Shown here: one piece after another, positions 11,003-64,000 of the stretch | Layout of the letters: the number at the start of each line of letters is the position of its first letter | Position numbering within the stretch: the stretch's first letter is position 1 | Assembly (NCBI GenBank): GCA_964421125.1 | Contig: CAYQVD010000003.1 | Location: forward strand, 5,779 to 69,778 | DNA from: an uncultured Bdellovibrionales bacterium | Lineage (GTDB): Bacteria; Patescibacteriota; Minisyncoccia; Moranbacterales; DUUL01 | Length of the DNA stretch: 64,000 nucleotides | Reading direction: 5' to 3' | Translations under genes and position numbers: made by a program | The notes under the pieces: generated by a model | What the model was told of the DNA's origin: nothing | The model's database searches: none | Seen by the model: only the letters and a program-made list of their open reading frames with translations

Positions 11003-12412
11003 GTGATGAAAATTTCTGAATTAAAGAATAAGAAAGTGACGGTGATGGGGATTGGATTGCATGGTGGTTCGGTTCAATTGATTAAATGGCTTCTTGAAAA
11101 AGGGGCAATTGTTACTGCAACTGATATTAAAAATAAAGAAAAGTTGAAAACTTCAATTGATGAAATTGGTGATCACAAAAACTTGAAAATTGTAGCTGAT
11201 CAACATCGACCAGAAGATTTTCAAAAAGCAGAACTGGTGATTAAGAACCCAACCGTTCCTTGGAAAAACAAGTATATTCAAATGGCAGTTAAAAAAAATA
11301 TTCCAATTGAAATGGATTCGTCTTTGTTTTTTCAATTTTGTCAGAGCGATAAGATTATTGGAATAACTGGGACAAAAGGGAAGACTACAGTTTCTTCTTT
11401 AATGGTGGATATTTTAAAAAATGCAGGGGAAAAAGTTGTGAGCGTTGGAGTTGGAAAAGAGCCTGTGATGAGTAAGTTGAAAAAAATTGACGAGAATACT
11501 TATGTGGTTTTTGAACTGTCTTCTTGGAGGCTTTCGGGAATTGATCAAATTAAAAAGAGTCCAAAGGTTGCTGTTGTTACAAATATTTATCCAGATCATT
11601 TGAATCATTATTCTTCAATGGAAAAGTATATTGAAGATAAAAAGGCAATTTTTAAACATCAGAAAGAAGAAGATAGTTTGATATTAAATTGGGACAATGA
11701 GATAACCAGAGAGTTTGCCGAAGAAGCTATTTCTCAAAAAATATTCTTTTCAATAAATAAAGCAGATGAACCGATAAGTGTTTTTATTAATGAAGGAGAG
11801 ATTGTTTATCGAAATGATGATGGTGAGGAGAAAATAATTTTAGATATTAAAAAAATAAGATTAAGAGGGGCACATAATATTTCCAATGCTTTAACCGCGA
11901 TTACCGTAGGAATTTCTTTGGGAATTGATATTGCAGTAATTAAGTCAGTTGTTGAAAAATTTCCAGGAGTGAAACATCGCTTGGAATATGTTGGAAAAAT
12001 AAATGAAAAATTTTTCTATAACGATACTACTGCTACTACTCCTGATTCAGCGATCGCTGGAGTAAATTCTTTTTGGAAACCAATTATTTTGATTTGTGGT
12101 GGAGCTGAAAAGAAACTTGACCTAAGTGAATTTGCAAAGAAAATTGCTACTGCTAAGAGTGTCAAAAAAATTATTTTATTAAAAGGTGAGGCAACTGAAA
12201 AGTTGAAAAGTATGATTGAAGAAAACGGTGGAATTGAAAAGATTGTTGATGTTTATGATAATATTGAAGAGGCAGTTCAAAAATCAGATGAAGTTTCTGA
12301 AAAAGGCGAAGTCGTTTTGCTTTCACCGGGATGCGCAAGTTTCGGAATGTTTGAAAATGAATTTGATCGGGGAAGGAAATTTAAAAGAGCAGTGGAAGTG
12401 TTACGTAACTAG
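11003..12412 (+). CDS. murD: UDP-N-acetylmuramoylalanine--D-glutamate ligase
   Basis: Mur ligase P-loop GITGTKGKTT; N-terminal MurD-type Rossmann VTVMGIGLHGG; length typical of MurD. Confidence 0.85.
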   Translation: MMKISELKNKKVTVMGIGLHGGSVQLIKWLLEKGAIVTATDIKNKEKLKTSIDEIGDHKNLKIVADQHRPEDFQKAELVIKNPTVPWKNKYIQMAVKKNIPIEMDSSLFFQFCQSDKIIGITGTKGKTTVSSLMVDILKNAGEKVVSVGVGKEPVMSKLKKIDENTYVVFELSSWRLSGIDQIKKSPKVAVVTNIYPDHLNHYSSMEKYIEDKKAIFKHQKEEDSLILNWDNEITREFAEEAISQKIFFSINKADEPISVFINEGEIVYRNDDGEEKIILDIKKIRLRGAHNISNALTAITVGISLGIDIAVIKSVVEKFPGVKHRLEYVGKINEKFFYNDTTATTPDSAIAGVNSFWKPIILICGGAEKKLDLSEFAKKIATAKSVKKIILLKGEATEKLKSMIEENGGIEKIVDVYDNIEEAVQKSDEVSEKGEVVLLSPGCASFGMFENEFDRGRKFKRAVEVLRN

Positions 12413-12648
12413 TTACTTAACACTTTTTGCATTGAAAATGGCGGGAATATAGTAGTATATTTTTTTGAAGCATCATCAGGAGAAAAGGTGTCTTGGAATG
12501 TAATTAATATATCTTCTCGCAACGCCATCGGAATGGCGAAATCCTCGAAGATACATTAATTACATTCCAAGATGAAAGAAGTTTTGAGACACTCAAAATT
12601 ATATCAGCTATATTTTTAAAAGTGTGAGATTATAAATAAGTTTAAAAA

Positions 12649-15868: not shown

Positions 15869-15903
15869 TCAATAAATTATCTGTTGATTGTTCAGTTCGA
15901 ATC

Positions 15904-16054
15904 CTTCTGGTAACATAAATTTTGAAAAAAATAAACTCGAGTATGAATTTTGTTGCTGAAAATCTCACCCATATTCAACACCACCTTGGTCGATTTTCAG
16001 ACAAAATTCAAACTCTCAAACATAATTTTTTGTCAAAATTTATGTTACCAGAAG
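15904..16054. repeat. Perfect 21-bp inverted repeats (cttctggtaacataaattttg / caaaatttatgttaccagaag) flanking a 109-bp AT-rich core; MITE-like element or long hairpin
   Basis: The two arms are exact reverse complements; read directly from the sequence. Confidence 0.6.
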
Positions 16055-16074
16055 ATTAGCTAAGTATTTTTTAA

Positions 16075-19138: not shown

Positions 19139-20296
19139 ATGAAAATTGGAATTGATGGATCGAGGGCTTACTTGGGGAATAAAACTGGAATAGAGGATTA
19201 TGCCTATCAAACTATTGGTCATCTTACGAAACACTTGAAAGGAGAACAAGTGATTCTTTATGTTAAAAAAGGACAAAAAGAAACAGCCTTTAATGATGAG
19301 AAATTTTCTTTTCCGGATAATTGGGAGATTAAAGAAATTCCGTTTAAATATCTTTGGACTCAATTTGGACTGGCACTTGAAATGTTTTTGAGACCTATTG
19401 ATATGCTTTTTGTTCCTGCTCATACGGTTCCATTTATTCATCCAAAAAATACAGTCGTAACAATTCACGGGCTTGAATATGAGCATTGCCCAGAGAGTTA
19501 TTCCTTTTGGGGTGGGAAGTTTCATCAATTTTTTGTTCGTAAAAGTTGCAAGTGGGCATCAAAAATTATTGCAGTTTCAAAAAATACTAAAAAAGATTTA
19601 ATAAAACTTTATAAAATAGAAAAAGAAAAAATAACAGTTGTTTATAATGGATTTGAAAGCAAGAATTTAAAGCCTGTGATTGAAGGAGAGGAGAAAAAAG
19701 ATTTTAATTGGGCTGATGTGAAAGATTTTCCAGCTAGTGAGAAAAAAACAAATTCTAAGATTGATAACTTTCTTTTGTTTGTGGGAAGATTGGAGCAAAG
19801 AAAGAATGTTTTAGGAATGATTGAATCTTTTGAAATATTAAAAAGAAATTATAGTTATAAAGGAAAGTTAGTTTTAGCAGGAAAATATGGACATGGAAGT
19901 AGGATGATTCGAAATAGGATTGCTAGAAGTGAATTTCAAAGAGATATTGTTTGTTTGGGATATATTCGTGATGAACAAAAATGGGAACTATTCCACAATG
20001 CTAGTATTTTTCTCTTTCCTTCACTGTGCGAAGGTTTTGGAATTCCGATCCTTGAGGCTCAAAGTTGTGGACTCCCAGTAATTACCAGCAATTATGGCCC
20101 AATGGACGAGGTTGCAGGAGATAAGAATACTTTGGTTAATCCATTGAATTTTGAAGAAATGGCGAAGAAGATTAATGAAATATTAAAAGATGAAACTTTT
20201 CGAAAAAATATTATTGAAAAAGGAAGCAAAAATGTTAAAAGATTTTCATGGGAAAAGAGCGGGGAAGAAGTTGCAAAAGTGATTCGTAAGAAATAG
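19139..20296 (+). CDS. GT4-family (GT-B fold) glycosyltransferase
   Basis: C-terminal EGFGIPILEAQSCGLPVITS (E-x7-E region) typical of group-1 glycosyltransferases. Confidence 0.75.
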   Translation: MKIGIDGSRAYLGNKTGIEDYAYQTIGHLTKHLKGEQVILYVKKGQKETAFNDEKFSFPDNWEIKEIPFKYLWTQFGLALEMFLRPIDMLFVPAHTVPFIHPKNTVVTIHGLEYEHCPESYSFWGGKFHQFFVRKSCKWASKIIAVSKNTKKDLIKLYKIEKEKITVVYNGFESKNLKPVIEGEEKKDFNWADVKDFPASEKKTNSKIDNFLLFVGRLEQRKNVLGMIESFEILKRNYSYKGKLVLAGKYGHGSRMIRNRIARSEFQRDIVCLGYIRDEQKWELFHNASIFLFPSLCEGFGIPILEAQSCGLPVITSNYGPMDEVAGDKNTLVNPLNFEEMAKKINEILKDETFRKNIIEKGSKNVKRFSWEKSGEEVAKVIRKK

Positions 20297-20328
20297 GTAA
20301 TTTGTGAATTTGTAATTTGGATAAAAAA

Positions 20329-20366
20329 ACAAGCCAATCACGGTGTTCTGTGATGGCTTGTTTTTT
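20329..20366. terminator. Rho-independent terminator between convergent genes (stem aagccaatcac/gtgatggctt + T-run)
   Basis: GC-rich hairpin followed by TTTTTT. Confidence 0.6.
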
Positions 20367-20393
20367 GGTTTGGTGGTAATTCAAAAAAATGAT

Positions 20394-21143
20394 CTAAGGG
20401 AATCTAAAAGCAAAAAGGGAGTCTTTGAAATCTTTTTTTTCTATTAAATCTCTAAGATTTCCTGACCATTCTTTGATCCATTTTTTTAACCATTGTGAGG
20501 AATCAGGATCATAATATTGTTGTCTGAATCCTAAAAGGATAGAGCGCTCGGATGTTCTTACTTGAATTGTTCGAAGTATAAGTTCTGCTCGATTGCGAGT
20601 ATACTTCAAATAAGGAATTTCAGAGGAGCGGTCTTTAATTATATGATTTTCTATTTCTTTATCTGAAGAGGTTGTGTCTGTATAGAAAATCATACATTCT
20701 GGCTTATTTCCTAATCTAGGAATCGCAAGAAATTTCAGAGTTTCAGGTGATAATTCACGGAGTTCTTCAAAGGACATATCAGGAGAATTATCTAGCTTAA
20801 TAAATTTAGAAAAATTTTCCATGGCTTTATAAGGGAGCAATTTTTCCTTATATTTTGATATTTCTTGTTGAAGAAATTCCTGTTTCTTTTCCCCTGTTTC
20901 AATCTGCAGTTGCATGAACATGTTCATGCTAAATACAAGAAGAGCAAGGAATGCAAATGAAGGGACTGCAATACAGCTGATGGTCATTGTTTTATCAATT
21001 TTGATTTTCGATGCTCCATTTTTATGAGCATCAGCAGTTCTTTGGTGTATTATCACCATTAAGATTAACACCATAATTCCAATTAAGGCTATGGCAATCT
21101 CAATAATGGGAACTAATGTATCAGTGAAAATCGTCATTGTCAT
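20394..21143 (-). CDS. Hypothetical membrane-anchored protein (2 N-terminal TM helices + ~170-aa soluble domain)
   Basis: Long ORF with a good SD (gagaaggagag) and hydrophobic N-terminus; no recognisable family. One of only a few minus-strand genes. Confidence 0.4.
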   Translation of the reverse strand: MTMTIFTDTLVPIIEIAIALIGIMVLILMVIIHQRTADAHKNGASKIKIDKTMTISCIAVPSFAFLALLVFSMNMFMQLQIETGEKKQEFLQQEISKYKEKLLPYKAMENFSKFIKLDNSPDMSFEELRELSPETLKFLAIPRLGNKPECMIFYTDTTSSDKEIENHIIKDRSSEIPYLKYTRNRAELILRTIQVRTSERSILLGFRQQYYDPDSSQWLKKWIKEWSGNLRDLIEKKDFKDSLFAFRFP

Positions 21144-21242
21144 GAGAATCTCTCCTTCTCTTTTTTAGTTTAAGTTTTTAAGGTTACTTCATTTAGAAAA
21201 ATAATTTTATCATAAAAACAGTGAAATGTCAAGCGGTGGGGC

Positions 21243-21270
21243 TTGACAAATTTTGTGGGTATGCTATAAA
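21243..21270 (+). promoter_or_regulatory. Strong sigma70-type promoter P1: GGGGC-TTGACA-16-TGcTATAAA (extended -10)
   Basis: Consensus -35, extended -10 and 16-bp spacer. The same GGGGCTTGACAA box recurs at 39554 and in related form at 59869. Confidence 0.6.
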
Positions 21271-21288
21271 GATACTTAAAGTTATTTG

Positions 21289-21504
21289 AAAAATTTTGTT
21301 GTTCCGGGTCGAAGTCTGCGTCATTTCAGGAAAGGTTTTTCCTGAGGCGTTGGATTTACTCGGTTTTAATGGGCGCTTGAGTTGGGAATTTCCCGTTGCC
21401 TGAACTGGACTATTCCCGTTGTTGGTTTCATTGGGAACCTCGGGATATGTATCCACATCGGCGTTTTATGGGATTTTCCTGACTCAAGTTTTTTGGTAAG
21501 TGAA
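21289..21504 (+). ncRNA. Candidate structured non-coding RNA or cis-regulatory leader immediately downstream of P1
   Basis: GC content far above the local background and no ORF. Contains hairpins caggaaaGGTTtttcctg and ggatatgtatcc, a long-range stem cttgagt(21376)/actcaag(21492), and a closing U-run. Confidence 0.35.
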
Positions 21505-21964
21505 TTTTTTAACGAAGGAGGAATGTTTTATGAGTGTTTTTAAAAAAACCATCATAGGAACGGGAGAAAAAAATTATTTTTAAATGATAACCCGGCGGCG
21601 ACCCATGATCGCGGTGGTGGCAGTGGATCCAATCTTATTATTATAAAATAGATTCTGGAATCCGGCCGACGCGCCTGTGATTTGGCCGCGACATAATAAC
21701 TTCAAGGATTGTTAATTTTTGAGAACTTTCACTGTCGCTGGCAAACTCAATGTTTTTGTGACGGAGATAAGAATGAGGTGAATTTAATTTCAGAGTTTGA
21801 TTCATAAATTTTTATTGTCGAAGTCGCAAAAGCAATCAATACCACTGAATATTATTCAGGGGAACTCATTTTAAAAAAGAAAAACCTTTACTGCATTTAA
21901 TTTTGTAGTAAAGGTTTTTATTTTAAATTGATATTTTAATAACATTTAAAGGAAAGGAGAGCGA

Positions 21965-22135
21965 ATGAAGAAAATATCTGGTGTTAATAATGCTGAGGAA
22001 GAGAGAACTATTGATATTGGAATAACAGTTGAAACCAAGGTGCCAGGACTTATTCCTCCTGAGCATGTAAACAGGGTTGGATTTATGATCGTAGGGTTTT
22101 TTCGAGCTTGCACCTTGGGTCTTAAGGACAGGTAA
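21965..22135 (+). CDS. Small ORF (56 aa, MKKISGVNNAEEERTIDIGITVETKVPGLIPPEHVNRVGFMIVGFFRACTLGLKDR) with SD aaaggagag; below the ORF-track size cutoff
   Basis: Good RBS spacing; followed directly by a perfect terminator. Function unknown. Confidence 0.35.
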   Translation: MKKISGVNNAEEERTIDIGITVETKVPGLIPPEHVNRVGFMIVGFFRACTLGLKDR

Positions 22136-22150
22136 AAAAATAAACGAACA

Positions 22151-22190
22151 CCCGGAAGCTCAGTGAAGCTTCCGGGAGTTTTTTTATTTT
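22151..22190 (+). terminator. Rho-independent terminator (cccggaagct-cagtga-agcttccggg + TTTTTTTATTTT)
   Basis: Perfect 10-bp GC-rich stem with a U-tract. Confidence 0.8.
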
Positions 22191-22420
22191 AAAAGGAGAT
22201 ATGCTTATTTTATAGAAGATGCGTCATGGGGATTTTTCTAAAAAATAAAGTAAAACAGGAGTAAAAGTTCAAGTTTAGAATGCACCACTTTTAAATATTT
22301 CATTAGGAGTTGAATATTTCTTTTTAAGTCTTTGTTTTGTTTAAAACAAGGGTTTTAAAAGGGAAGGGTTCCCTTATTATATTTATTCTTTGAAAATTTT
22401 TTGGAAAGGGAGAATTTAAG

Positions 22421-23098
22421 ATGAAAAACGTATTATCTTTTGTTTTGGCTATCGTTGCTTCTTTAGTATTGACTGGAAGTTCTTTTGCTCAGGAAAATGC
22501 TACAGAGAAGCCGCCTGTATATGAAGCTGCTGAATTACTCATTAAGCCCGCTGTTTCATATGAAAAAATGAAAGAGGCTTACGGAGATGCTGTTATCTGG
22601 GAAAAAGATGATTTTCATTTTTTTCCTCGTGTTGAACTTCGATCTGGGGACGTTCTTTTGATTGATGGTAGACATGATAATATCAATAAAAATGCTTTCA
22701 TGGATGGACGTGTGGACTTGGTGATTGTTCAGAAGGGTGATAAAACTGTTAGAGAGGAATATCTCATAAATTGTCCATATGACAATTACTTTAAGGTTAA
22801 AGTTGATAAATTAATCGAGAAGTATATTGAGATGGCCCAAAAAGCTTTTCTTGCCAAGGACGCTTTTGTGGAAAAGGGTATTTTTAAGGGAAATCTTAAT
22901 CACTTAGGGTATTCTCTTATAATAGCTGAGGAAGGAATTGCGTTTACAGTTGTAGGCGAAACCAGTAAAAACCTGATTTCAATTACAATAAGTGATTCTA
23001 ATTATAAAATTGAAAAAAAATTCCTCGACCTTGGAGCGGTCGTGGAAAAGGAGATATTCCAATCTGAAATGGATAAACTGCTTGGTGAGCAGTTGTAA
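22421..23098 (+). CDS. Secreted hypothetical protein (signal peptide MKNVLSFVLAIVASLVLTGSSFAQE)
   Basis: Sec-type signal peptide with AQE cleavage region; SD aaagggagaa; no recognisable family. Confidence 0.5.
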   Translation: MKNVLSFVLAIVASLVLTGSSFAQENATEKPPVYEAAELLIKPAVSYEKMKEAYGDAVIWEKDDFHFFPRVELRSGDVLLIDGRHDNINKNAFMDGRVDLVIVQKGDKTVREEYLINCPYDNYFKVKVDKLIEKYIEMAQKAFLAKDAFVEKGIFKGNLNHLGYSLIIAEEGIAFTVVGETSKNLISITISDSNYKIEKKFLDLGAVVEKEIFQSEMDKLLGEQL

Positions 23099-23260
23099 TA
23101 ATTTTTTATCAATCAGTTTCAAAACTAATAATCGTTTTACTCATAATAGGTAAAGCGGTTATTTTTTTACAATAAATATTTTTTAAGAAGTTTTTTTGTT
23201 TTAAACGGTGTTTATGATATAATCAACGCAGAACTAAATAATCAAACAATAATAAAAAGC

Positions 23261-24388
23261 ATGAAGAAAGTTGCCTTGGTGCATGATTTTTTGACTTCGT
23301 ATGGGGGAGCGGAAAGTGTCTTGAAAGAATTTGGTGAAATGTATCCGGATGCTCCGGTTTATACAATGATTCAGGATAAAAAAGTGTTGGATGAATTTGG
23401 AGAAAATTGGTTTTCAAAAAGAGGACTAGAGACGTCTTTTCTTCAAAAAGCTCCAAAGTTTTTCAAGAAACGAAAAAAGTTTCTTTTACCGTTTATGACA
23501 GTAGCGCCGGAGACCTATAATCTTCGTGATTTTGATTTAGTGATTTCTTCTTCTGGAGCTTTTTCTAAGGGTATTGTTGTGAAACCAAAAACGATTCATG
23601 TTTGCTATATGCATTCTCCAATGCGTTATGTTTGGGATTGGTATCATGATTATTTAGAAGAAAATAAATTGAAAGGTAAAATAAAATTTTTTACTCGATT
23701 TGTTTTGAACTATGTGAGAATGTGGGATCGATCTAGTGCGCAAAGACCAGATTTTTTAATTGCAAATTCGAATTATACTGCTCGAAGAATTAAAAAATAT
23801 TATAGACGTGATTCAAAAGTGATTTATCCACCAGTTGAAATTAATGATATCAAGCCTCAAAAAGAAAATAAGGGATATTTTATGTTAGTGGCACGACTTT
23901 CTCCTTATAAAAGAATTGATGTGGTTATTAGGGCTTTTCAAAAACTCGATTTACCACTTGTGATTGTTGGTGAAGGAGGGCAAAGAAAAGAATTGGAGGA
24001 GTTAATTGTTCAAGGAAAAAATTTTAAAATAAAGCTAGTTGGATGGAAGAAGCGAGAAGAATTAGTAAAATTATATCAAAATGCTCGAGCATTTGTTTTT
24101 GCGGCTGAAGAAGATTTTGGAATTGTAGCAGTTGAAGCAATGGCAGGTGGAAAACCAGTATTGGCTTTGAAACGAGGAGGACTGAAGGAGATCGTGAAGG
24201 AGAATGTATCAGGATTGTTTTTTGATGAGCCGGTAATGGAACTTGTTGCAGATGCAGTTCGAAGATTTATTAATAAGGAAAAAGAATTTGATTTTGAAAT
24301 GATCAGGAAAGAGTCGGAGAAGTTTTCTGTTGAGAGATTTAGGAGGGAGTTTCATGAATATGTGAACGAAGTAACTGGTAATTTGTAA
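23261..24388 (+). CDS. GT4-family glycosyltransferase
   Basis: N-terminal VALVHDFLTSYGGAESV and C-terminal EDFGIVAVEAMAGGKPVLAL motifs of group-1 glycosyltransferases. Confidence 0.75.
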   Translation: MKKVALVHDFLTSYGGAESVLKEFGEMYPDAPVYTMIQDKKVLDEFGENWFSKRGLETSFLQKAPKFFKKRKKFLLPFMTVAPETYNLRDFDLVISSSGAFSKGIVVKPKTIHVCYMHSPMRYVWDWYHDYLEENKLKGKIKFFTRFVLNYVRMWDRSSAQRPDFLIANSNYTARRIKKYYRRDSKVIYPPVEINDIKPQKENKGYFMLVARLSPYKRIDVVIRAFQKLDLPLVIVGEGGQRKELEELIVQGKNFKIKLVGWKKREELVKLYQNARAFVFAAEEDFGIVAVEAMAGGKPVLALKRGGLKEIVKENVSGLFFDEPVMELVADAVRRFINKEKEFDFEMIRKESEKFSVERFRREFHEYVNEVTGNL

Positions 24389-29697: not shown

Positions 29698-29764
29698 TTT
29701 AGTTTTTTTGGGGGTAGAATTTCTTGTAATTAGTAATTTGTGAATAGGTACTTTAGATAGAAAA

Positions 29765-29803
29765 GAAAAAAGCCAGTCGCGTTTTAGCGATTGGCTTTTT
29801 TTG
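29765..29803. terminator. Bidirectional Rho-independent terminator (aagccagtcgc / gcgattggctt, A-run 5-prime and T-run 3-prime)
   Basis: Hairpin between convergent polA (+) and the 29831..30889 (-) gene. Confidence 0.7.
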
Positions 29804-39461: not shown

Positions 39462-39553
39462 GTTTGTCCGGGGTGGTTTAACACTTATTTATGATAAAAA
39501 GGCTTATGTAATGGGGTAAAAAGATGCTTGTGGATAACTTGTTTCATGGGGGC

Positions 39554-39582
39554 TTGACAACTTGAAATGGATATGATATAAA
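39554..39582 (+). promoter_or_regulatory. Strong sigma70-type promoter P2: GGGGC-TTGACA-17-TGaTATAAA (extended -10); paralog of P1
   Basis: The core box GGGGCTTGACAA matches P1 at 12 of 12 positions. Confidence 0.55.
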
Positions 39583-40055
39583 GAGTGTAATAAATATTAA
39601 TGTAGATAAACAGGAAATTTAGTTGGACGTAAAAGTACTTTGTTATTTCGAATGTAGTTGAGAAATCTTTATTTAAAGGGGACTAAATAAAGACTGTAAG
39701 AAGCAGAAAGATCTTTCGACTACGCTCAGGACGACAGAGCGTCGAATTATATGAACAATATACCGATAAAAATAAAAATCGAGACATACGATACACTACC
39801 AAATGTTCCGGGTTTGATGTTGTTCGAATCTGGTTCTGAAGTTGAAAATTTAGTAGCAAAAACAAAACCGACAATTTTTTAATGTTGGTTTTTGTTAAAT
39901 TGAAGTCCCGGAATTAGTTTTTTTATGAAAATTAGCCTGGCACTTTGAAAAACACAACGTTTGAAAAAACGTTTATACATATATCATACTGAATCAAAAA
40001 ATTAAGATTTTGCAAATAAACTTTCCTCTGCGATGAGGAGAAAGGACGTGATGAT

Positions 40056-41258
40056 ATGAATATTAAGAATAGTGCTAATAACAGAGATGTTAGAGAATGT
40101 GATTTTGTTGCGCACAGAGTGGAATCTCGCAATAAATTGCTGGATCATAAGTGTTTTCGTAATTTTCATAAGAATCCGGAGAAGGCAAAAGAAAGAAGAT
40201 TTTGGCCATTATTGCCTTATTGCTGGATTAGAAGTTTTCTGGTTCTTTTTTCGAAAAAACCTTTCGATGTGGTGGATGAATTTATTCATGCTCCTACATC
40301 CGAGACGGTTATTCGAGAAAGAATCGTCTTATTGAAAAACTATGGCTGGCATTTTTTACCGAAAATTCATCTTCAGAATTTTATCAAGGCTCGTATTTTG
40401 AAAACAGTTCTTGATATTCAGAGGCCTGGCAAAGTAGTTGGTCTTGGTGCATTAATAAAAGATCACAGTTTAACGCAAGGAGGAGAATGGGTTGTTGAAC
40501 AACTTGGTGACAGGTTGGTATCTCCTATTGTTCATGGTGATACAGCTACGGCTGGTTACGTCATGGAAAATATGGAGAAGATTATGAAAACAAGGAAGCT
40601 TAGTGGACCGATTGCTTTGACGGGACCAACTTCAAAAATTGGGAAAGTAATTGCAAAAATATTTTCTGAGTTCCATGTGATTTTTTGTATTACAAAGGAT
40701 GAAAAAAGGTTTCTTAAACTTCAGTCTCAAGCTAAAAATCCTAAAAACCTGGTTTTTTGTCCAAATTCTCGGAAGGCTACTGGTTGTCCGTTGTGGGTAA
40801 CTGGAAAGTTTAAGCCTGCAGGAAAAAAGCTTTTAAGTTGTATTCCGCAGGGAGCTGCAGTACTGAATTTTGCAGTGCCAAACCCTCTTAATAAAAAAAT
40901 CGTAAAAGCTATTCGTCCCGATCTTTTTGTTGCTGAAGCTGGTTTAGTTGAAATAGATCCTACTTTCTCAGGTCAAGAGTTCACTATGCGACTTTGCCCT
41001 GAATTCACTTATGCTTGTGACGGTGGCACTCGGATTCATGCAGCCATGAATTGGACACATAACGAGGTCGGAGAGGTTGAAATTGATCAGGTTTCAGTGG
41101 TCATGGAGGCCGGTCATAACCTTGGATTTGAACCTCACTTAGAGATTCTCTGGGATCCGGCTTGGCATGTCGTAGAGGTTATTGCGCCAAGAACGGACAA
41201 ATGGTATTGGTTAAAAATCAAAAAGGGTTTGGCAAGGAATGCTGGAATTTTTCTGTAA
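40056..41258 (+). CDS. Hypothetical protein (400 aa) with a basic Cys/His-containing N-terminus and a possible Rossmann-like segment (TGPTSKIGKVIA)
   Basis: Long ORF with SD (gaggagaaagga); lies behind a ~470-nt structured leader from P2; family unknown. Confidence 0.45.
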   Translation: MNIKNSANNRDVRECDFVAHRVESRNKLLDHKCFRNFHKNPEKAKERRFWPLLPYCWIRSFLVLFSKKPFDVVDEFIHAPTSETVIRERIVLLKNYGWHFLPKIHLQNFIKARILKTVLDIQRPGKVVGLGALIKDHSLTQGGEWVVEQLGDRLVSPIVHGDTATAGYVMENMEKIMKTRKLSGPIALTGPTSKIGKVIAKIFSEFHVIFCITKDEKRFLKLQSQAKNPKNLVFCPNSRKATGCPLWVTGKFKPAGKKLLSCIPQGAAVLNFAVPNPLNKKIVKAIRPDLFVAEAGLVEIDPTFSGQEFTMRLCPEFTYACDGGTRIHAAMNWTHNEVGEVEIDQVSVVMEAGHNLGFEPHLEILWDPAWHVVEVIAPRTDKWYWLKIKKGLARNAGIFL

Positions 41259-43764: not shown

Positions 43765-43837
43765 TGGGCGCAGAGGGATTCGAACCCCCGACCATCAGCT
43801 TAAAAGGCTGTTGCTCTACCAACTGAGCTATGCGCCC
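43765..43837 (-). tRNA. tRNA-Lys (anticodon UUU)
   Basis: The reverse complement folds as a cloverleaf: acceptor GGGCGCA/TGCGCCC, D-arm GCTC-AGTTGGTA-GAGC, anticodon loop CTTTTAA, T-arm GGGGG-TTCGAAT-CCCTC. CCA is not encoded. Confidence 0.8.
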
Positions 43838-59661: not shown

Positions 59662-59868
59662 ATCTAGAATTTTTTTATATGAAAACAGCCTTAATGGGCT
59701 GTTTTTTGGCCTTTTTGAGACAATTATTAAAAAACACTTGTTAATATTGCAGCAAAAAAGTTTACACTTTTGCTACAATGTTAACAGAGTACCTTAACTG
59801 GATTCCTAATCTGCTTCGTTAAAGCTTCAGCGAGGCGAGTCAAGTTGGGAATGACAAGTGAGGGGTCT

Positions 59869-59896
59869 TGACAAGATTTTTATTGGGTATAAAATA
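59869..59896 (+). promoter_or_regulatory. Promoter P3 (GGGTC-TTGACA-16-TAAAAT) of the hrcA-grpE operon; related to P1 and P2
   Basis: The conserved GGG(G/T)CTTGACAA box; directly follows family A copy A9. Confidence 0.5.
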
Positions 59897-59901
59897 TGAA
59901 T

Positions 59902-59928
59902 TAGCAGTCTCGTGTGGTGACTGCCAGA
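59902..59928 (+). promoter_or_regulatory. CIRCE-like inverted repeat TTAGCAGTC-N9-GACTGCCAG (candidate HrcA operator)
   Basis: Consensus CIRCE is TTAGCACTC-N9-GAGTGCTAA. Left arm has 8 of 9 matches; right arm is complementary to the left for 6 of 9 positions. It lies at the predicted transcription start of hrcA. Confidence 0.45.
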
Positions 59929-59976
59929 AAATTTAAAAATTTGCGTATAATATAGGCAGGAGGAGAAAATAAAATT

Positions 59977-60747
59977 ATGCTAAATGAAAGACAGGGAAAA
60001 ATTTTAAAGGCAATTGTTCAGGAATACACCGAAACTGCGAATCCGGTGAGTAGTGGGTATCTAAGAAAAAAAAATAAGCTTGATTATTCAACGGCTACGA
60101 TTCGGAGTGAAATGGCAAATCTTGAGGAAAATGGTTTTTTAATAAAAGTTTATGTTTCTTCTGGAAGAGTTCCAAGTGATATGGGCTATCGATATTTTAT
60201 TGATAATCTTATGGGAGAAAGAGATCTTTCTCGAAGTTATCAAAAGAAATTGGAATTAGAACTTTTGAAACAAAAAGCCAAGAATGCGAGATTTGAGAGA
60301 ACGACTACGAAACTTCTTTCTTCAATGTCACAATGCCTTGTTTTGAGTGGAGCGATTGAAAAGGAAGAATATTTTGATTTTGGAATGCATAATTTAATTG
60401 ATGATCCAGAATTTTCTAATATGGATGATCTTTCTCGGTTAACATCTGCGCTTGATTTGATTGATGAAAATGTTGATAAGATTCTTTCACAAGTTAAGGA
60501 AGGAGAAACAAAGATTTTTGTTGGAAAAGAAAATCCATTAAAAGAAATTCAGAATTGTTCAATGATTGTGGCTCCCTACAAACTCAAAGAAGGAAAAAGT
60601 GGATTGATTGCCATCATTGGTCCAAAGAGAATGCGTTATGAGAAGAATAAGAGTTTGATTGATTTTGTTAAGAAGGTTCTTGGAGGAAATGGAGACAAGG
60701 TCGTGATGATTATGATTGCAGGGAGTTCAATTATGACTATTATATAA
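59977..60747 (+). CDS. hrcA: Heat-inducible transcription repressor HrcA (short form)
   Basis: N-terminal winged helix LNERQGKILKAIVQEYTETANPVSSGYL typical of HrcA. Confidence 0.8.
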   Translation: MLNERQGKILKAIVQEYTETANPVSSGYLRKKNKLDYSTATIRSEMANLEENGFLIKVYVSSGRVPSDMGYRYFIDNLMGERDLSRSYQKKLELELLKQKAKNARFERTTTKLLSSMSQCLVLSGAIEKEEYFDFGMHNLIDDPEFSNMDDLSRLTSALDLIDENVDKILSQVKEGETKIFVGKENPLKEIQNCSMIVAPYKLKEGKSGLIAIIGPKRMRYEKNKSLIDFVKKVLGGNGDKVVMIMIAGSSIMTII

Positions 60748-60758
60748 TTTAAATATTT

Positions 60759-61625
60759 ATGAAGAAGCAAAAAAAACAAATGGAGTCAATGGCACGTCCA
60801 ATGGCGATTACGATTAAGGCAGTTGTTCTGAATGGAAAAGGTGAGATTCTTTTGATTAAAAGAGGATTAGAAGAATTGAATGGTGGGAAATATGATTTGC
60901 CAGGTGGCCACATTGAAGCAGGAGAGACAATTGAGGAGGCGCTTATTCGGGAAATCAAGGAGGAAACAGGACTGGATGTGGAAAAAGGAGAAATTATTGA
61001 TGCAGTTGAGTTTCCAAAAGATAATAAACTTTTCAAAGAAGAAAAAAGAGGATTGAGATATATTTGTTATACTGAAGGTAAAGAGATTCAATTAAGCGAT
61101 GAACATCACAGTGCAGATTGGTTTTCAGTGGATGATGCCATTGAGGAACTTGATGAGAAAGATGGATTTGAAAATGAAAAGAGACAAACAATCTTAAAGG
61201 CAAAAGAATTACTAGAACGAAAAAGTTCAATGGATGGATGGAAAAGAGCCCTGGCAGATTTGGAGAATTTTAAAAAAAGAACTGCTGACTCAAATGCAGA
61301 ATTTAGTCAGTATTGCATAGAAGATTTTGTGTTTGAGATTTTGCCAGTGATTGATAATTTTGATTTGTCGCTTAAACATGTTCCAGAAGGAAAAGAAAAT
61401 GACGGATGGACTACAGGAATATTGCATATCAGAAAACAACTTGCTGATGTATTAGAAGGAAAAGGAGTTGTTGAAATTAAATGTAAGTCAGGAGACAAAA
61501 TTGATGAAACAGTTCACGAGGTAATTGCAGGAAATGGAAAAAAAGGAAAAGTTAAAAAGGTTATTAAGAAAGGATATAAGCTGAAGGAAAAGGTGATTCG
61601 ACCGGTGAGTGTGGAGGGAGAATAG
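60759..61625 (+). CDS. grpE: Nudix hydrolase domain fused to GrpE nucleotide-exchange factor
   Basis: Residues ~10-145: Nudix fold with perfect box GHIEAGETIEEALIREIKEETGL. Residues ~160-288: GrpE (WKRALADLENFKKRTADSNAEF...ILPVIDNFDLSL...GVVEI...KKGYKLKEKVIRPVSV). Confidence 0.75.
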   Translation: MKKQKKQMESMARPMAITIKAVVLNGKGEILLIKRGLEELNGGKYDLPGGHIEAGETIEEALIREIKEETGLDVEKGEIIDAVEFPKDNKLFKEEKRGLRYICYTEGKEIQLSDEHHSADWFSVDDAIEELDEKDGFENEKRQTILKAKELLERKSSMDGWKRALADLENFKKRTADSNAEFSQYCIEDFVFEILPVIDNFDLSLKHVPEGKENDGWTTGILHIRKQLADVLEGKGVVEIKCKSGDKIDETVHEVIAGNGKKGKVKKVIKKGYKLKEKVIRPVSVEGE

Positions 61626-61695
61626 TTCTTTATAAAAAAACTCCCAGCGATACTGTTTCAGTAGCGCCGGGGTTTATAGGAATCAGTTGATATAA

Positions 61696-61941
61696 TTAGT
61701 AGCTATAATAACCACTTCTTCTTACGGGAGTTTTTTCAGAAAGTTTTCCAAGGGTTTGAAGCTTATTTTTAGACATTTGGATTTGTTTCAGTTCTTTGTT
61801 TTCTGATAGCAATTTACTTATTTGATTAATTGCAGAGGTAAATCTTTTTTTCGTCTTTTTGGAAAAGCCATCTTGTTTAGAAGAATATTCTATTTTTCTG
61901 AGCAGTATTTTGAGATATTTTTTAGGAACATTAATGAACAT
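61696..61941 (-). CDS. Small basic hypothetical protein (81 aa) encoded divergently between grpE and dnaK
   Basis: Strong SD (gaggaggtaacaATG on the minus strand); K/R-rich; no family recognised. Confidence 0.35.
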   Translation of the reverse strand: MFINVPKKYLKILLRKIEYSSKQDGFSKKTKKRFTSAINQISKLLSENKELKQIQMSKNKLQTLGKLSEKTPVRRSGYYSY

Positions 61942-61982
61942 TGTTACCTCCTCAAACGTTCAGGGTTAGTTAAATGATTTTC

Positions 61983-62015
61983 TAGAATTAATAAAATTTT
62001 AATTTATTAATTCTA
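61983..62015. promoter_or_regulatory. Perfect 13-bp inverted repeats TAGAATTAATAAA-N7-TTTATTAATTCTA in the divergent region upstream of dnaK; candidate operator
   Basis: Exact dyad; AT-rich, so the significance is moderate. Confidence 0.35.
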
Positions 62016-62111
62016 AGAAGTCAATTTAATAAATAATTAATTTACCCTGTTAAATAATTTGCTTTGCAAATTAAAATCGAAGATTTTATTTAACTGGGCA
62101 AGAAAAACAAT

Positions 62112-64000
62112 ATGTCAAAGATTCTAGGAATTGACCTTGGAACAACAAACTCTGCGATGGCTGTCGTTGAAGGCGGAAAGCCAGAGATTGTTGAAAACAA
62201 GGAAGGTAATCGAACCACTCCATCAATGGTGGCGATTAACAAAAGTGGAGAAAGATTAGCTGGTTTGCTTGCAAAAAGACAAGCGGTGACTAATCCAGAA
62301 AGCACAATTTATTCTGCAAAGAGATTAATTGGGCGAAAGTTTTCTGATAAAGAAGTTCAGGAAGCCATGAAAACTCTTCCTTTTAAGATTAAGGAAGGAG
62401 AAAATGGTTCAGTAAATATCGTTATGAATGGCGAAGAAAAAAGACCAGCAGAAATTTCTGCTATAGTTCTTCAGAAAATGAAAGCTGATGCTGAAGAAAA
62501 ACTTGGAGAAACAATTGAAGAAGCAGTGATTACTGTTCCAGCATATTTTGATGACGCTCAAAGAAAGGCAACGAAAGATGCTGGTGAAATTGCTGGATTG
62601 AAAGTAAAGCGAATTATCAATGAGCCAACTGCAGCCGCTTTGGCTTATGGGTTTAATAAGAAAAAAGACGAAAAAATTGCCGTCTATGATCTTGGAGGTG
62701 GAACATTTGATGTTTCCATTTTAGAAGTCAGTGATGACACTGTTGAAGTGAAGTCAACTAATGGTGATACCTATCTTGGTGGAGACGACTTTGATCAAAA
62801 AATTATTGACTTTATTCTTGATGAATTCAAGAAACAGGAAGGAATTGATCTTTCAAAAGATCCGCTTGCTCTTCAAAGAATTAAAGAATCTGCTGAAAAA
62901 GCAAAGATTGAGCTTTCAACTGTTCAAGAAACTGAAGTTAATCAACCATTCATCACGACTGGTGAAGATGGACCAAAGCATCTTGTTTTGAAAATTACTC
63001 GAGCAAAACTTGAAGAACTTGTTTCTGAATTAGTCGATAAGAGTATTAAACCTTGCAAGAAAGCACTCGATGATGCTGGAATGAAAATTTCTGATATTAA
63101 TGAAGTTATCTTGGTGGGTGGAATGACTCGAATGCCGTTAGTTCAAAAGAAGGTTGAGGAATTCTTTGGAAAGAAGCCAAACGCAACCGTGAATCCAGAT
63201 GAGGTTGTAGCTCTTGGAGCTGCGATTCAAGGAGGTGTTTTACAAGGAGATGTGAAAGATGTTCTTTTGCTCGATGTGACTCCTTTGACTGTGGGGATTG
63301 AAACAATGGGATCAATTCGAACACCGCTTATCGATCGAAATACTACAATTCCAGCAAGTAAATCACAAATCTTTTCAACCGCGGCTGACAACCAACCTTC
63401 TGTTGAAATTCACGTTCTTCAAGGAGAGCGAGAAATGGCAGCTGATAACAAAACTCTTGGAAGATTCATTTTGGATGGTATTCCGCCATCTCCACGAGGA
63501 GTTCCACAAATTGAAGTTACTTTTGACATTGATGCTAATGGAATCTTGAATGTAAAAGCTCAAGATAAGGCCACTGGAAAAGAACAATCAATTCGAATTG
63601 AAGCTTCAAGTGGACTTTCTGATGAAGAAATCGAAAAGATGAAAAAAGATGCAGAAGTGCATGCTGATGAAGACAAGAAAAAGAAAGAACAAGTTGAAAT
63701 CAAGAACAACGCCGATGCTCTTGTCTTCACAACTGAAAAAGCTTTAAAAGAAGCTGGTGAAAAAGTCAGTGCTGACAAAAAGAAGCCAGTTGAAGAAAAA
63801 ATTGAAGCTTTGAAAAAAATAAAAGATGGTGATGATATTGATGCAATCAAAAAGGCTTCCGAAGAACTTTCAACAGAAGCTCAAAAGATTGGTCAAGAAC
63901 TTTATCAAGCTGCACAAAAAGAGCAAGACGCCTCTGCAAAGGATGCAAAACCCGACTCCGATAAAGCTACGACGGGCGAAGCAGAAGTGAAAGATGCAGA
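62112..64000 (+). CDS. dnaK: Chaperone DnaK (Hsp70), 3-prime end outside the window
   Basis: [22 protein letters not shown]..., [12 protein letters not shown], the full Hsp70 ATPase and substrate-binding domains; not in the ORF track because there is no stop codon in the window. Confidence 0.95.

Follow-up and report, generated by a model that had tools for sequence, protein, structure and literature searches.

A candidate promoter-to-terminator structured RNA or leader in a strain-specific ORFan island of a Moranbacteria genome

What does a strong promoter serve when it is followed by some 690 nucleotides (nt) of hairpin-dense DNA without a credible gene? The question is raised by an island between two glycosyltransferase genes, GT4a and GT4b, in the DNA analyzed here, a 64-kb window (33% guanine plus cytosine, GC) of a Candidatus Moranbacteria genome (Patescibacteria, also called Candidate Phyla Radiation, CPR). 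The stretch in question (21277-21964) reaches from the predicted +1 of the promoter, P21243, to orf56, a small gene encoding 56 amino acids (aa). The reading that we favor, at a probability of roughly 0.4, is that the island carries a unit acting at the RNA level, namely a terminated small RNA (sRNA) of ~218 nt and/or an attenuating leader ahead of coupled micro-open reading frames (micro-ORFs) and orf56.

That the DNA between GT4a and GT4b has been inserted became evident from the comparison with relatives. The MreB protein of the window shared 81% identity with that of a Moraniibacteriota metagenome-assembled genome (MAG) and 73-78% with those of other MAGs of Moranbacteria and Parcubacteria. 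MreB-anchored synteny across 185k species genomes disclosed the gene order MreB-GT4a-GT4b-holB-YkuD in four relatives, in which the gap between GT4a and GT4b amounts to ~35-160 bp, compared with 2964 bp in the window. The insertion takes in the minus-strand gene of a 249-aa membrane protein (memb249), orf56, a gene for a secreted protein (sec225) and the leader region. An earlier note on this sequence had rightly spoken of an accessory island, absent as it is from the four relatives, but had drawn it too small and taken the membrane-protein gene for its flank. The GC content of the island genes is host-like. Neither a target-site duplication was found at the junctions, where the longest direct repeat is a 9-mer, nor an integrase, relaxase or Rep gene in the island. 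A DNA homolog of the insert was detected neither among 80 related loci (blastn, nhmmer) nor elsewhere in the window, and blastn searches of the island against phages, plasmids and Escherichia coli genomes gave no match. The same island DNA, 100% identical, is contained in contigs of the ENA assemblies ERZ27316679 and ERZ27317826 and of the JGI metagenome 3300031657. A check for presence/absence polymorphism revealed the island on every contig with an identical GT4b, and all copies recovered were 100% identical. The stretch is an accessory insertion specific to one strain. The earlier note had named a lack of conservation in related genomes as a ground for giving up its view; such conservation is indeed lacking, but only as the island as a whole is unique.

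The promoter itself is well defined. The near-consensus sequence TTGACA-16-TGcTATAAA pointed out earlier is present, and its -10 region carries a TG two bases upstream. The pattern TTGACA-N16-18-TAWAAW occurs five times in the 64 kb (0.67 sites expected), and two of these five sites are the divergent pair of the island. Its extended form GGGGnCTTGACA with the upstream GGGGnC was found at three sites (21237, 39548 and 59862) when at most one mismatch was allowed, against 0.45 expected. Because the same extended motif resides directly upstream of hrcA-grpE (59862-59895), P21243 is assigned by its sequence to the native strong housekeeping class of promoters of this organism, which is of the sigma-70 type. 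It has TTGACA, a spacer within 16-18 nt, TAWAAW and the TG extension, the elements by which this class was defined.

The RNA predicted to start here folds far better than expected by chance, and does so on the strand that the promoter faces. For the plus strand of 21277-21925 a minimum free energy (MFE) of -204.5 kcal/mol was obtained, corresponding to a z-score of -9.9 with 20 and of -7.5 with 60 shuffled sequences, while the minus strand reached -142.2 kcal/mol (z -3.1 and -3.8, respectively). A coding control of equal length gave a z-score of -0.4. The strand asymmetry is due to G.U pairs, which make up 37 of the 221 pairs predicted on the plus strand. When 2320 windows, each 220 nt long and taken from both strands of the 64 kb, were compared, the first ~218 nt (block 1) on the plus strand ranked lowest in absolute MFE. 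Its two hairpins, A and B, part of which the earlier note had seen by eye, both fold better than chance (Table 1).

Composition also sets the stretch apart, though less sharply than the earlier wording "strikingly GC-rich" suggested. With 1277 nt, the intergenic region (IGR) of the island exceeds all other internal ones of the window in length, and no other IGR attains its peak GC content of 0.49 over 150 nt, that of the tRNA-bearing IGR being 0.45. Blocks 1 and 2, however, reach only 47-49% in windows of 100-150 nt, compared with the mean of 33%, and eight other segments of the window, mostly coding, also attain at least 46%, which makes ten in all. Long GC-rich IGRs in AT-rich genomes are the criterion by which the Breaker laboratory enriched for structured non-coding RNAs (ncRNAs) (PMC6429828, PMC11109978); judged by GC content versus length, the island IGR is the strongest outlier of the window.

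Hairpin B may mark the end of a short transcript. As read from the sequence, CTTGAGT (21376-21382) pairs with ACTCAAG (21482-21488) at its base, and a continuous basal stem of 14 bp lies directly before six U residues (U6). The long stem and its U-run had thus been recognized correctly, except that the ACTCAAG half had been placed at 21492; this half and both ends of a 17-codon ORF (given as 21539-21592) had been assigned coordinates 9-10 nt too high. Hairpin B together with U6 forms a putative intrinsic terminator (T0) that would yield an RNA of ~218 nt; a scanner for consensus terminators made no call at this hairpin of 115 nt.

Past T0, the 17-codon ORF is present with its Shine-Dalgarno sequence (SD), and a 20-codon ORF follows, which traverses the 5' arm of the block 2 hairpin and contains three Arg codons in a row (CGG-CGG-CGA). 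CGG accounts for 3% of the Arg codons in six housekeeping genes. Both ORFs are predicted micro-ORFs that would be translated on read-through transcripts. The block 2 hairpin is not followed by a U-tract. Farther downstream lie another long hairpin, the terminator-like hairpin T1 and orf56, which the earlier note had found together with its SD and the textbook terminator behind it (T2). The latter has all parts of an intrinsic terminator: a perfect 10-bp stem with seven G-C pairs, a 6-nt loop and U7.

From these elements the following course of events can be proposed. P21243, located back-to-back with the memb249 promoter, would transcribe a G/U-rich, hairpin-dense and essentially non-coding plus-strand RNA. 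Its first ~218 nt would comprise an AU-rich 5' tail of 27 nt, hairpin A, the rod-like hairpin B and U6, and most transcripts probably stop at U6, giving rise to an abundant small RNA. Read-through transcripts would present the SD-led 17-codon ORF coupled to the 20-codon ORF, whose translation would invade the next hairpin, and would then pass more hairpins and T1 on the way to orf56. Since no promoter of its own was detected for orf56, this gene probably needs read-through from P21243 across T0 and T1. Block 1 would act as an attenuating leader and/or as an sRNA gating the downstream small genes. By the insertion, the cell-envelope locus MreB-GT4-GT4 would have received, besides three ORFan genes, a regulatory unit that acts at the RNA level.

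Two variants of this scheme deserve mention. At 14 of 15 positions, the apex of hairpin A (21327-21341) and the 5' arm of T1 are complementary to each other (p ~0.03 by shuffling), a lead toward an antitermination contact rather than a result; on these grounds block 1 might possibly be a trans-acting antiterminator. The leader could also possibly be a leader-peptide attenuator, with the three Arg residues (RRR) in the peptide, that controls the ORFan envelope proteins. When sRNA-target duplexes were ranked against 55 translation-initiation regions, memb249 came third, and orf56 and sec225 were found in the middle of the table; the gapped duplexes were unrealistic, and the ranking is uninformative.

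Table 1. Features of the island and its leader. Positions refer to the 64-kb window; MFE in kcal/mol; z, z-score of folding against shuffled sequences.
Feature	Position	Strand	Remarks
Insertion	20297-23260		strain-specific, ~2.96 kb, between GT4a (19139-20296) and GT4b (23261-24388)
Terminator-like hairpin	20324-20366		bidirectional, between the convergent GT4a and memb249 genes
memb249	20394-21143	-	ORFan; 249 aa, two long N-terminal helices and a soluble C-terminal part
memb249 promoter	21204-21232	-	TTGACA-17-(TG)ATAAAAT (TGATAAAAT); 11/12 match, TG-extended
Palindrome	21227-21248		TGTCAAGC-ggtggg-GCTTGACA; two back-to-back -35 boxes (memb249 and RNA promoters)
75-aa ORF	21229-21456	-	GTG start; overlaps block 1
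Strong promoter P21243	21237-21270	+	tGGGGcTTGACA-N16(TGc)-TATAAA; TTGACA to -10 at 21243-21270; predicted +1 near 21277
Hairpin A of block 1	21304-21363	+	MFE -25.9, z -3.9; minus strand MFE -13.1, z -2.3
Hairpin B of block 1	21375-21489	+	rod-like, 115 nt; MFE -52.8, z -5.5; U6 at 21489-21494
53-aa ORF	21382-21543	+	TTG start; overlaps block 1; 22-residue hydrophobic stretch
SD of 17-codon ORF	21514-21522	+	GAAGGAGGA; spacing to ATG 8 nt
17-codon ORF	21530-21583	+	MSVFKKTIIGTGEKNYF; predicted
20-codon ORF	21584-21646	+	MITRRRPMIAVVAVDPILLL; predicted; ATG abuts the stop of the 17-codon ORF (TAA-ATG)
Block 2 hairpin	21595-21689	+	imperfect, GC-rich, 14-nt AU loop; MFE -36.4; z -1.5 (plus strand), -0.5 (minus strand)
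Further long leader hairpin	21751-21834	+	MFE -26.8, z -4.0
T1	21880-21929	+	perfect 16-bp AU-rich hairpin (21880-21919), then AUUUUAAAUU; z -7.3
SD of orf56	21948-21961	+	
orf56	21965-22135	+	ORFan; 56 aa; called as gene on all source contigs
T2, intrinsic terminator	22137-22190	+	stem 22151-22176, then U7, to 22185; z -7.2
Weak promoter-like site	22354-22383	+	upstream of sec225
SD of sec225	22403-22414	+	
sec225	22421-23098	+	
T3	23127-23163	+	terminator-like hairpin, then T-run; downstream of sec225

A number of observations weigh against the favored reading. Hairpin B is far longer than the stems of usual intrinsic terminators, which typically comprise 5-14 bp with loops of 3-8 nt. Once its energy is regressed on composition, block 1 lies at only about -3 standard deviations, and block 2, the most GC-rich part of the leader, folds no better than chance on the plus strand (z -1.4 to -1.5). 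Moreover, all long IGRs of the genome fold better than their shuffled counterparts, typically with z-scores of -3 to -5, and two short IGRs (15869-16074 and 12413-12648) even outscore the island leader (z -8 to -9). Hairpin richness is partly a genome-wide property, and because every intergenic region of this genome is rich in hairpins, the structural argument is weakened. Finally, searches of genome, metagenome, viral, phage, plasmid and E. coli collections turned up no homolog of any part of the island, and therefore no support by covariation or conservation could be obtained. A covariance model of block 1, for instance, had no match in the 80 related loci (471 kb) or in the rest of the window.

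The two short IGRs contain AT-rich palindromes that are nested and near-perfect; their arms measure 26-28 nt, with 96% complementarity, and they fold equally on both strands (z -6 to -9). The two share no sequence similarity and differ in kind from the island leader.

Five exact-core scans of viral contigs and one of metagenome contigs remained empty but for two matches, both of which we judged to be due to chance. A 20-mer of block 1 matched within an ORF of a contig with 63% GC, and the 20-mer GATTCTGGAATCCGGCCGAC of block 2 recurred exactly in one viral sequence present in two contigs, where the match extends to only 22 of 23 nt, with no similarity in the flanks. These contigs (IMG/VR UViG_3300029417_000148, positions 1264-1286, and UViG_3300007530_000190, positions 11129-11151) are identical to each other over at least 250 nt around the match; a tRNA, a tmRNA or an Rfam element was not found at this site.

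Could the non-coding stretch (21277-21964) simply be functionless cargo or an insertion scar? It would then be decaying foreign DNA that arrived with the ORFan genes, and its GC-richer blocks and hairpins would be leftovers of the donor such as terminators, palindromes and operators, while the promoter would be real and mainly serve orf56. We regard this as somewhat less likely than the favored reading. The restriction of the island to one strain, the ORFan nature of all its genes, the abundance of hairpins in all IGRs of the genome, the insignificant folding of block 2 and the lack of any conservation showing selection agree with it. Neutral DNA palindromes, however, would not produce an excess of folding on the strand of the promoter (z -7.5 versus -3.8, a difference of 62 kcal/mol), and the true DNA palindromes of the window fold alike on both strands. 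Nor did the stretch disclose what decaying genes would leave behind. When its stop-free segments in all six frames were compared with Pfam and NCBIfam, only a match to RTE1 below threshold was obtained (18.6 versus 29.4 bits), and a pseudogene remnant is unsupported, as no frame holds a credible coding remnant. Furthermore, the host-like GC content of the island genes implies that the GC-richer blocks do not simply reflect the composition of a donor.

The RTE1 match falls into the frame that holds a 53-aa ORF, and this ORF leads to another explanation, to which we attach only a small probability. The locus could encode small proteins or a type I toxin-antitoxin system, the products being the 53-aa or 75-aa ORF, the 17- or 20-codon ORF, or orf56, and the RNA being a folded mRNA or the antitoxin. 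Strong folding, as predicted for the RNA here, is typical of type I toxin mRNAs; the 53-aa ORF includes a hydrophobic stretch, and the SD of the 17-codon ORF is ideal. Contrary to the earlier description of block 1 as ORF-free, the 53-aa and 75-aa ORFs do overlap it. Both start without an SD, at TTG and GTG, respectively, were not called on the source contigs and have no family match above threshold, and their hydrophobicity follows from the G/U-rich composition. In addition, the 17-aa peptide is hydrophilic, and a search for convergent or antisense promoters gave none of quality.

Still less credit is due to the view that the hairpins work at the DNA level, be it in single-strand replication (as an origin), in transfer (as an oriT) or in recombination (as a site for it), and belong to a degraded integrative and conjugative element (ICE) or plasmid. 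Single-strand origins of rolling-circle plasmids are likewise strand-specific, non-coding and dense in hairpins, the hairpins lie in an inserted island, and the transmembrane (TM) region of memb249 is faintly similar to TM and conjugal-transfer proteins of Mycoplasma ICEs in NCBIfam (E 0.006-0.03). The latter similarity, which is confined to the TM region and whose score (16 bits) lies far below the cutoff (70 bits), is treated by us as compositional. Genes of an integrase, a relaxase or a Rep protein are missing from the island, as are terminal or direct repeats at the junctions and any similarity to plasmids or phages. The asymmetry of folding rests on G.U pairs, which stabilize RNA far more than DNA, and the hairpins begin exactly downstream of a strong promoter and end in terminators.

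A diverged member of a known RNA family, i.e. transfer-messenger RNA (tmRNA), RNase P RNA, 6S RNA, signal recognition particle (SRP) RNA, a riboswitch or a tRNA split by a group I intron, is effectively refuted, for although strong promoters are often present at stable-RNA genes and the string GAUUCUGGAAUCCGGCCGAC in block 2 resembles GAUUCUGGAUUCGAC of the 5' end of E. coli tmRNA, Rfam 15 gave no match at gathering thresholds, the 1.35-kb slice 21100-22450 contained nothing credible even at E<=10, ARAGORN reported neither a tmRNA nor a tRNA at default stringency with introns allowed, and the locus is absent from sister species, unlike a housekeeping gene. The split tRNA had been considered in view of the tRNA genes that Patescibacteria hide behind group I introns (PMC13011429); it was rejected, as ARAGORN found no gene at this stringency and Rfam no Intron_gpI or tRNA match at E<=10.

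In the whole window the sole Rfam match at gathering thresholds was tRNA-Lys (43765-43837). On the slice, the relaxed search returned noise, with best scores far below gathering that fell mostly on terminators, and no match to tmRNA or to RNase P, 6S or SRP RNA. The tmRNA was likewise rejected: apart from a spurious permuted call (22029-22359) that appeared only when the threshold was lowered to 80%, ARAGORN made no tmRNA call in the window, and its output at lowered thresholds was inconsistent noise. Together with the insignificant folding of block 2, these results leave nothing of the likeness to the tmRNA 5' end and to RNase P P4 that the earlier note had perceived there. A riboswitch, T-box or known leader was discarded, too. 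Riboswitch and T-box models had no match, while His_leader (23.4 versus 49 bits, at T2) and Thr_leader (16.8 versus 55 bits, on the minus strand) scored less than half their gathering values, and the downstream genes are ORFans. The riboswitch that had been suggested among other roles is unsupported, given that no conserved aptamer was seen and no metabolic gene follows, and a housekeeping ncRNA is very unlikely for a locus that is strain-specific and missing in sister species. By sequence the island leader thus appears assignable to no known RNA family, as the earlier note had stated from inspection by eye.

Several other classes of elements were considered and rejected. A system based on ribosomally synthesized and post-translationally modified peptides (RiPPs) or other small peptides, also proposed earlier, is unsupported: orf56 and the other ORFs tested matched nothing in Pfam, NCBIfam, PADLOC and PHROG, the 17-aa peptide being too short for such searches, and the island and its surroundings lack modifying enzymes. 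CRISPR- or TIGR-type guide arrays and the RNA repeats of type III toxin-antitoxin systems do not apply, as 20300-23300 contains neither tandem arrays, beyond trivial AT-rich 7-12-mers, nor repeat families. Elements similar to repetitive extragenic palindromes (REP) or miniature inverted-repeat transposable elements (MITE) were dismissed, as no second copy exists in the 64-kb window and none was found by covariance model search in 471 kb of related loci. An integron attC site would have an imperfect hairpin between R''(RYYYAAC) and R'(GTTRRRY) boxes and lie behind cassettes that share one orientation. It was rejected by inspection; such boxes bound neither hairpin B nor the block 2 hairpin, and the island genes are not co-oriented.

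The proteins of the island gave no functional anchor, because database matches are absent and the single-sequence AlphaFold2 models reached a pLDDT of only 49 (memb249) and 35 (sec225). Among 5.8 billion protein clusters, memb249, sec225 and orf56 each matched only themselves, and the same held for memb249 when 1.84 billion representatives were searched exhaustively with HMMER. All three were without a match above threshold in Pfam, NCBIfam, PADLOC and PHROG, and tblastn of memb249 and sec225 against phages was negative. The 225-aa ORFan sec225 has a hydrophobic, signal-peptide-like helix at its N-terminus (…SFA/QE), in agreement with the earlier description as a signal-peptide protein.

Two palindromes may have a regulatory role. 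The one that spans the back-to-back -35 boxes of P21243 and the memb249 promoter is, judging from its position, a possible shared operator. Upstream of sec225 there is a single promoter-like site, and the palindrome AAGGGAAGGGTTCCCTT (22359-22375), which separates its -35-like hexamer from its -10-like one, may also be an operator.

At the left border of the island, the AT-rich motif GTAATTTGTGAATTnGTAATTTGGATAAAAAAG (20297-20330) precedes the bidirectional terminator-like hairpin. This motif resides directly past the stop codons of GT4a and of PolA (29733-29781) and occurs again at 613-643; it may be a post-gene element used throughout the genome.

The two other sites of the extended promoter class were inspected as well. 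At hrcA-grpE (59862-59976), a CIRCE-like inverted repeat, TTAGCAGTC-N9-GACTGCCAG, lies between the promoter GGGGTCTTGACA-N16-TATAAAAT and the hrcA gene (59977-60747). The next gene (60759-61625) encodes a NUDIX-GrpE fusion. The promoter at 39548-39582 is followed by ~470 nt without an ORF and then by the gene of a 400-aa protein (40056-41258) with a CER1-like C-terminal domain, the 3' part of which is GC-richer. Its leader (39590-40055) folded with a z-score of -2.9, showed no sequence similarity to the island leader and had no match in Rfam. In the last 2.4 kb of the window (61626-64000), a crude gene map contained no ORF of at least 100 aa, and the GC content rose to 46% at 63176-63327. A gene that continues beyond the window may account for this part, or it may be another non-coding feature.

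What would follow if the favored reading is true? To our knowledge, almost nothing is known about sRNAs and attenuators in Patescibacteria. A real and functional transcript would be a rare case in which a Patescibacteria (CPR) genome employs RNA-based regulation, and would also mean that strain-specific ORFan islands of reduced genomes bring along their own regulatory RNA under a strong promoter of the host type. An antiterminator or an RRR attenuator would rank among the first regulatory RNAs to be described from Patescibacteria. A farther-reaching proposal, that block 1 (~218 nt) or the whole hairpin chain of ~650 nt is a functional structured RNA of an undescribed class that a CPR episymbiont carries on an island confined to its lineage, we consider rather improbable. 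As a single copy in a single strain, the candidate cannot seed a family, and the RNA has no functional anchor because all neighboring island genes are ORFans. Its main practical value is that of a well-mapped target, with promoter, +1, two to three terminators and micro-ORFs, for metatranscriptomes of the source samples.

How does the island compare with known systems? Its setting recalls the strain-variable ORFan islands of cell-surface glycan loci: it is inserted between two glycosyltransferase genes near mreB, and its cargo consists of a membrane protein and a secreted protein without homologs. Such islands are, however, a general phenomenon rather than a defined family and are uninformative with respect to the RNA. 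The layout of a two-hairpin element right after a strong promoter and before several terminators is reminiscent of the processive antitermination RNAs HK022 put and EAR, but the resemblance is restricted to this layout, as there is no match in sequence or structure and the Rfam EAR model did not match. With 6S RNA, the predicted RNA shares the size of ~200 nt, the strong promoter and the dominance of a long rod-like helix; unlike 6S RNA, it has no Rfam 6S match, shows no large central bubble in the predicted rod and is strain-specific instead of core.

The resemblance to attenuators (leader-peptide attenuators of trp, his and thr, translational attenuators of erm and cat, and terminated sRNAs derived from riboswitches) extends to more features. 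Like these, the island combines a promoter, a structured leader and a hairpin with a U-tract. Its SD-led short ORFs are placed such that translation would invade the next hairpin, the second micro-ORF contains consecutive rare Arg codons, and a second terminator precedes the first real gene. It differs from them in that His_leader and Thr_leader score far below threshold and match at the wrong place or on the wrong strand, the block 2 hairpin lacks a U-tract, and the downstream genes are ORFans instead of biosynthetic or resistance genes.

Finally, candidate ncRNAs have been collected from GC-rich IGRs of AT-rich bacteria (GC-IGR, DIMPL), among them OLE, ROOL, GOLLD and raiA (PMC6429828, PMC8632094, PMC11109978). 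These classes are defined by conservation and covariation over many genomes, unlike the island leader, which is one sequence without an Rfam family. On the other hand, the IGR of the island is, as in those cases, a long one, the longest internal and locally the most GC-rich of a genome with 33% GC, with a strong strand-specific predicted structure, and it lies in accessory DNA, where ROOL and GOLLD are often found. The best place for the feature, as a new candidate, is among elements of a familiar kind, structured RNAs or leaders that extend from promoter to terminator in GC-rich IGRs of AT-rich genomes, here within a strain-specific ORFan island.

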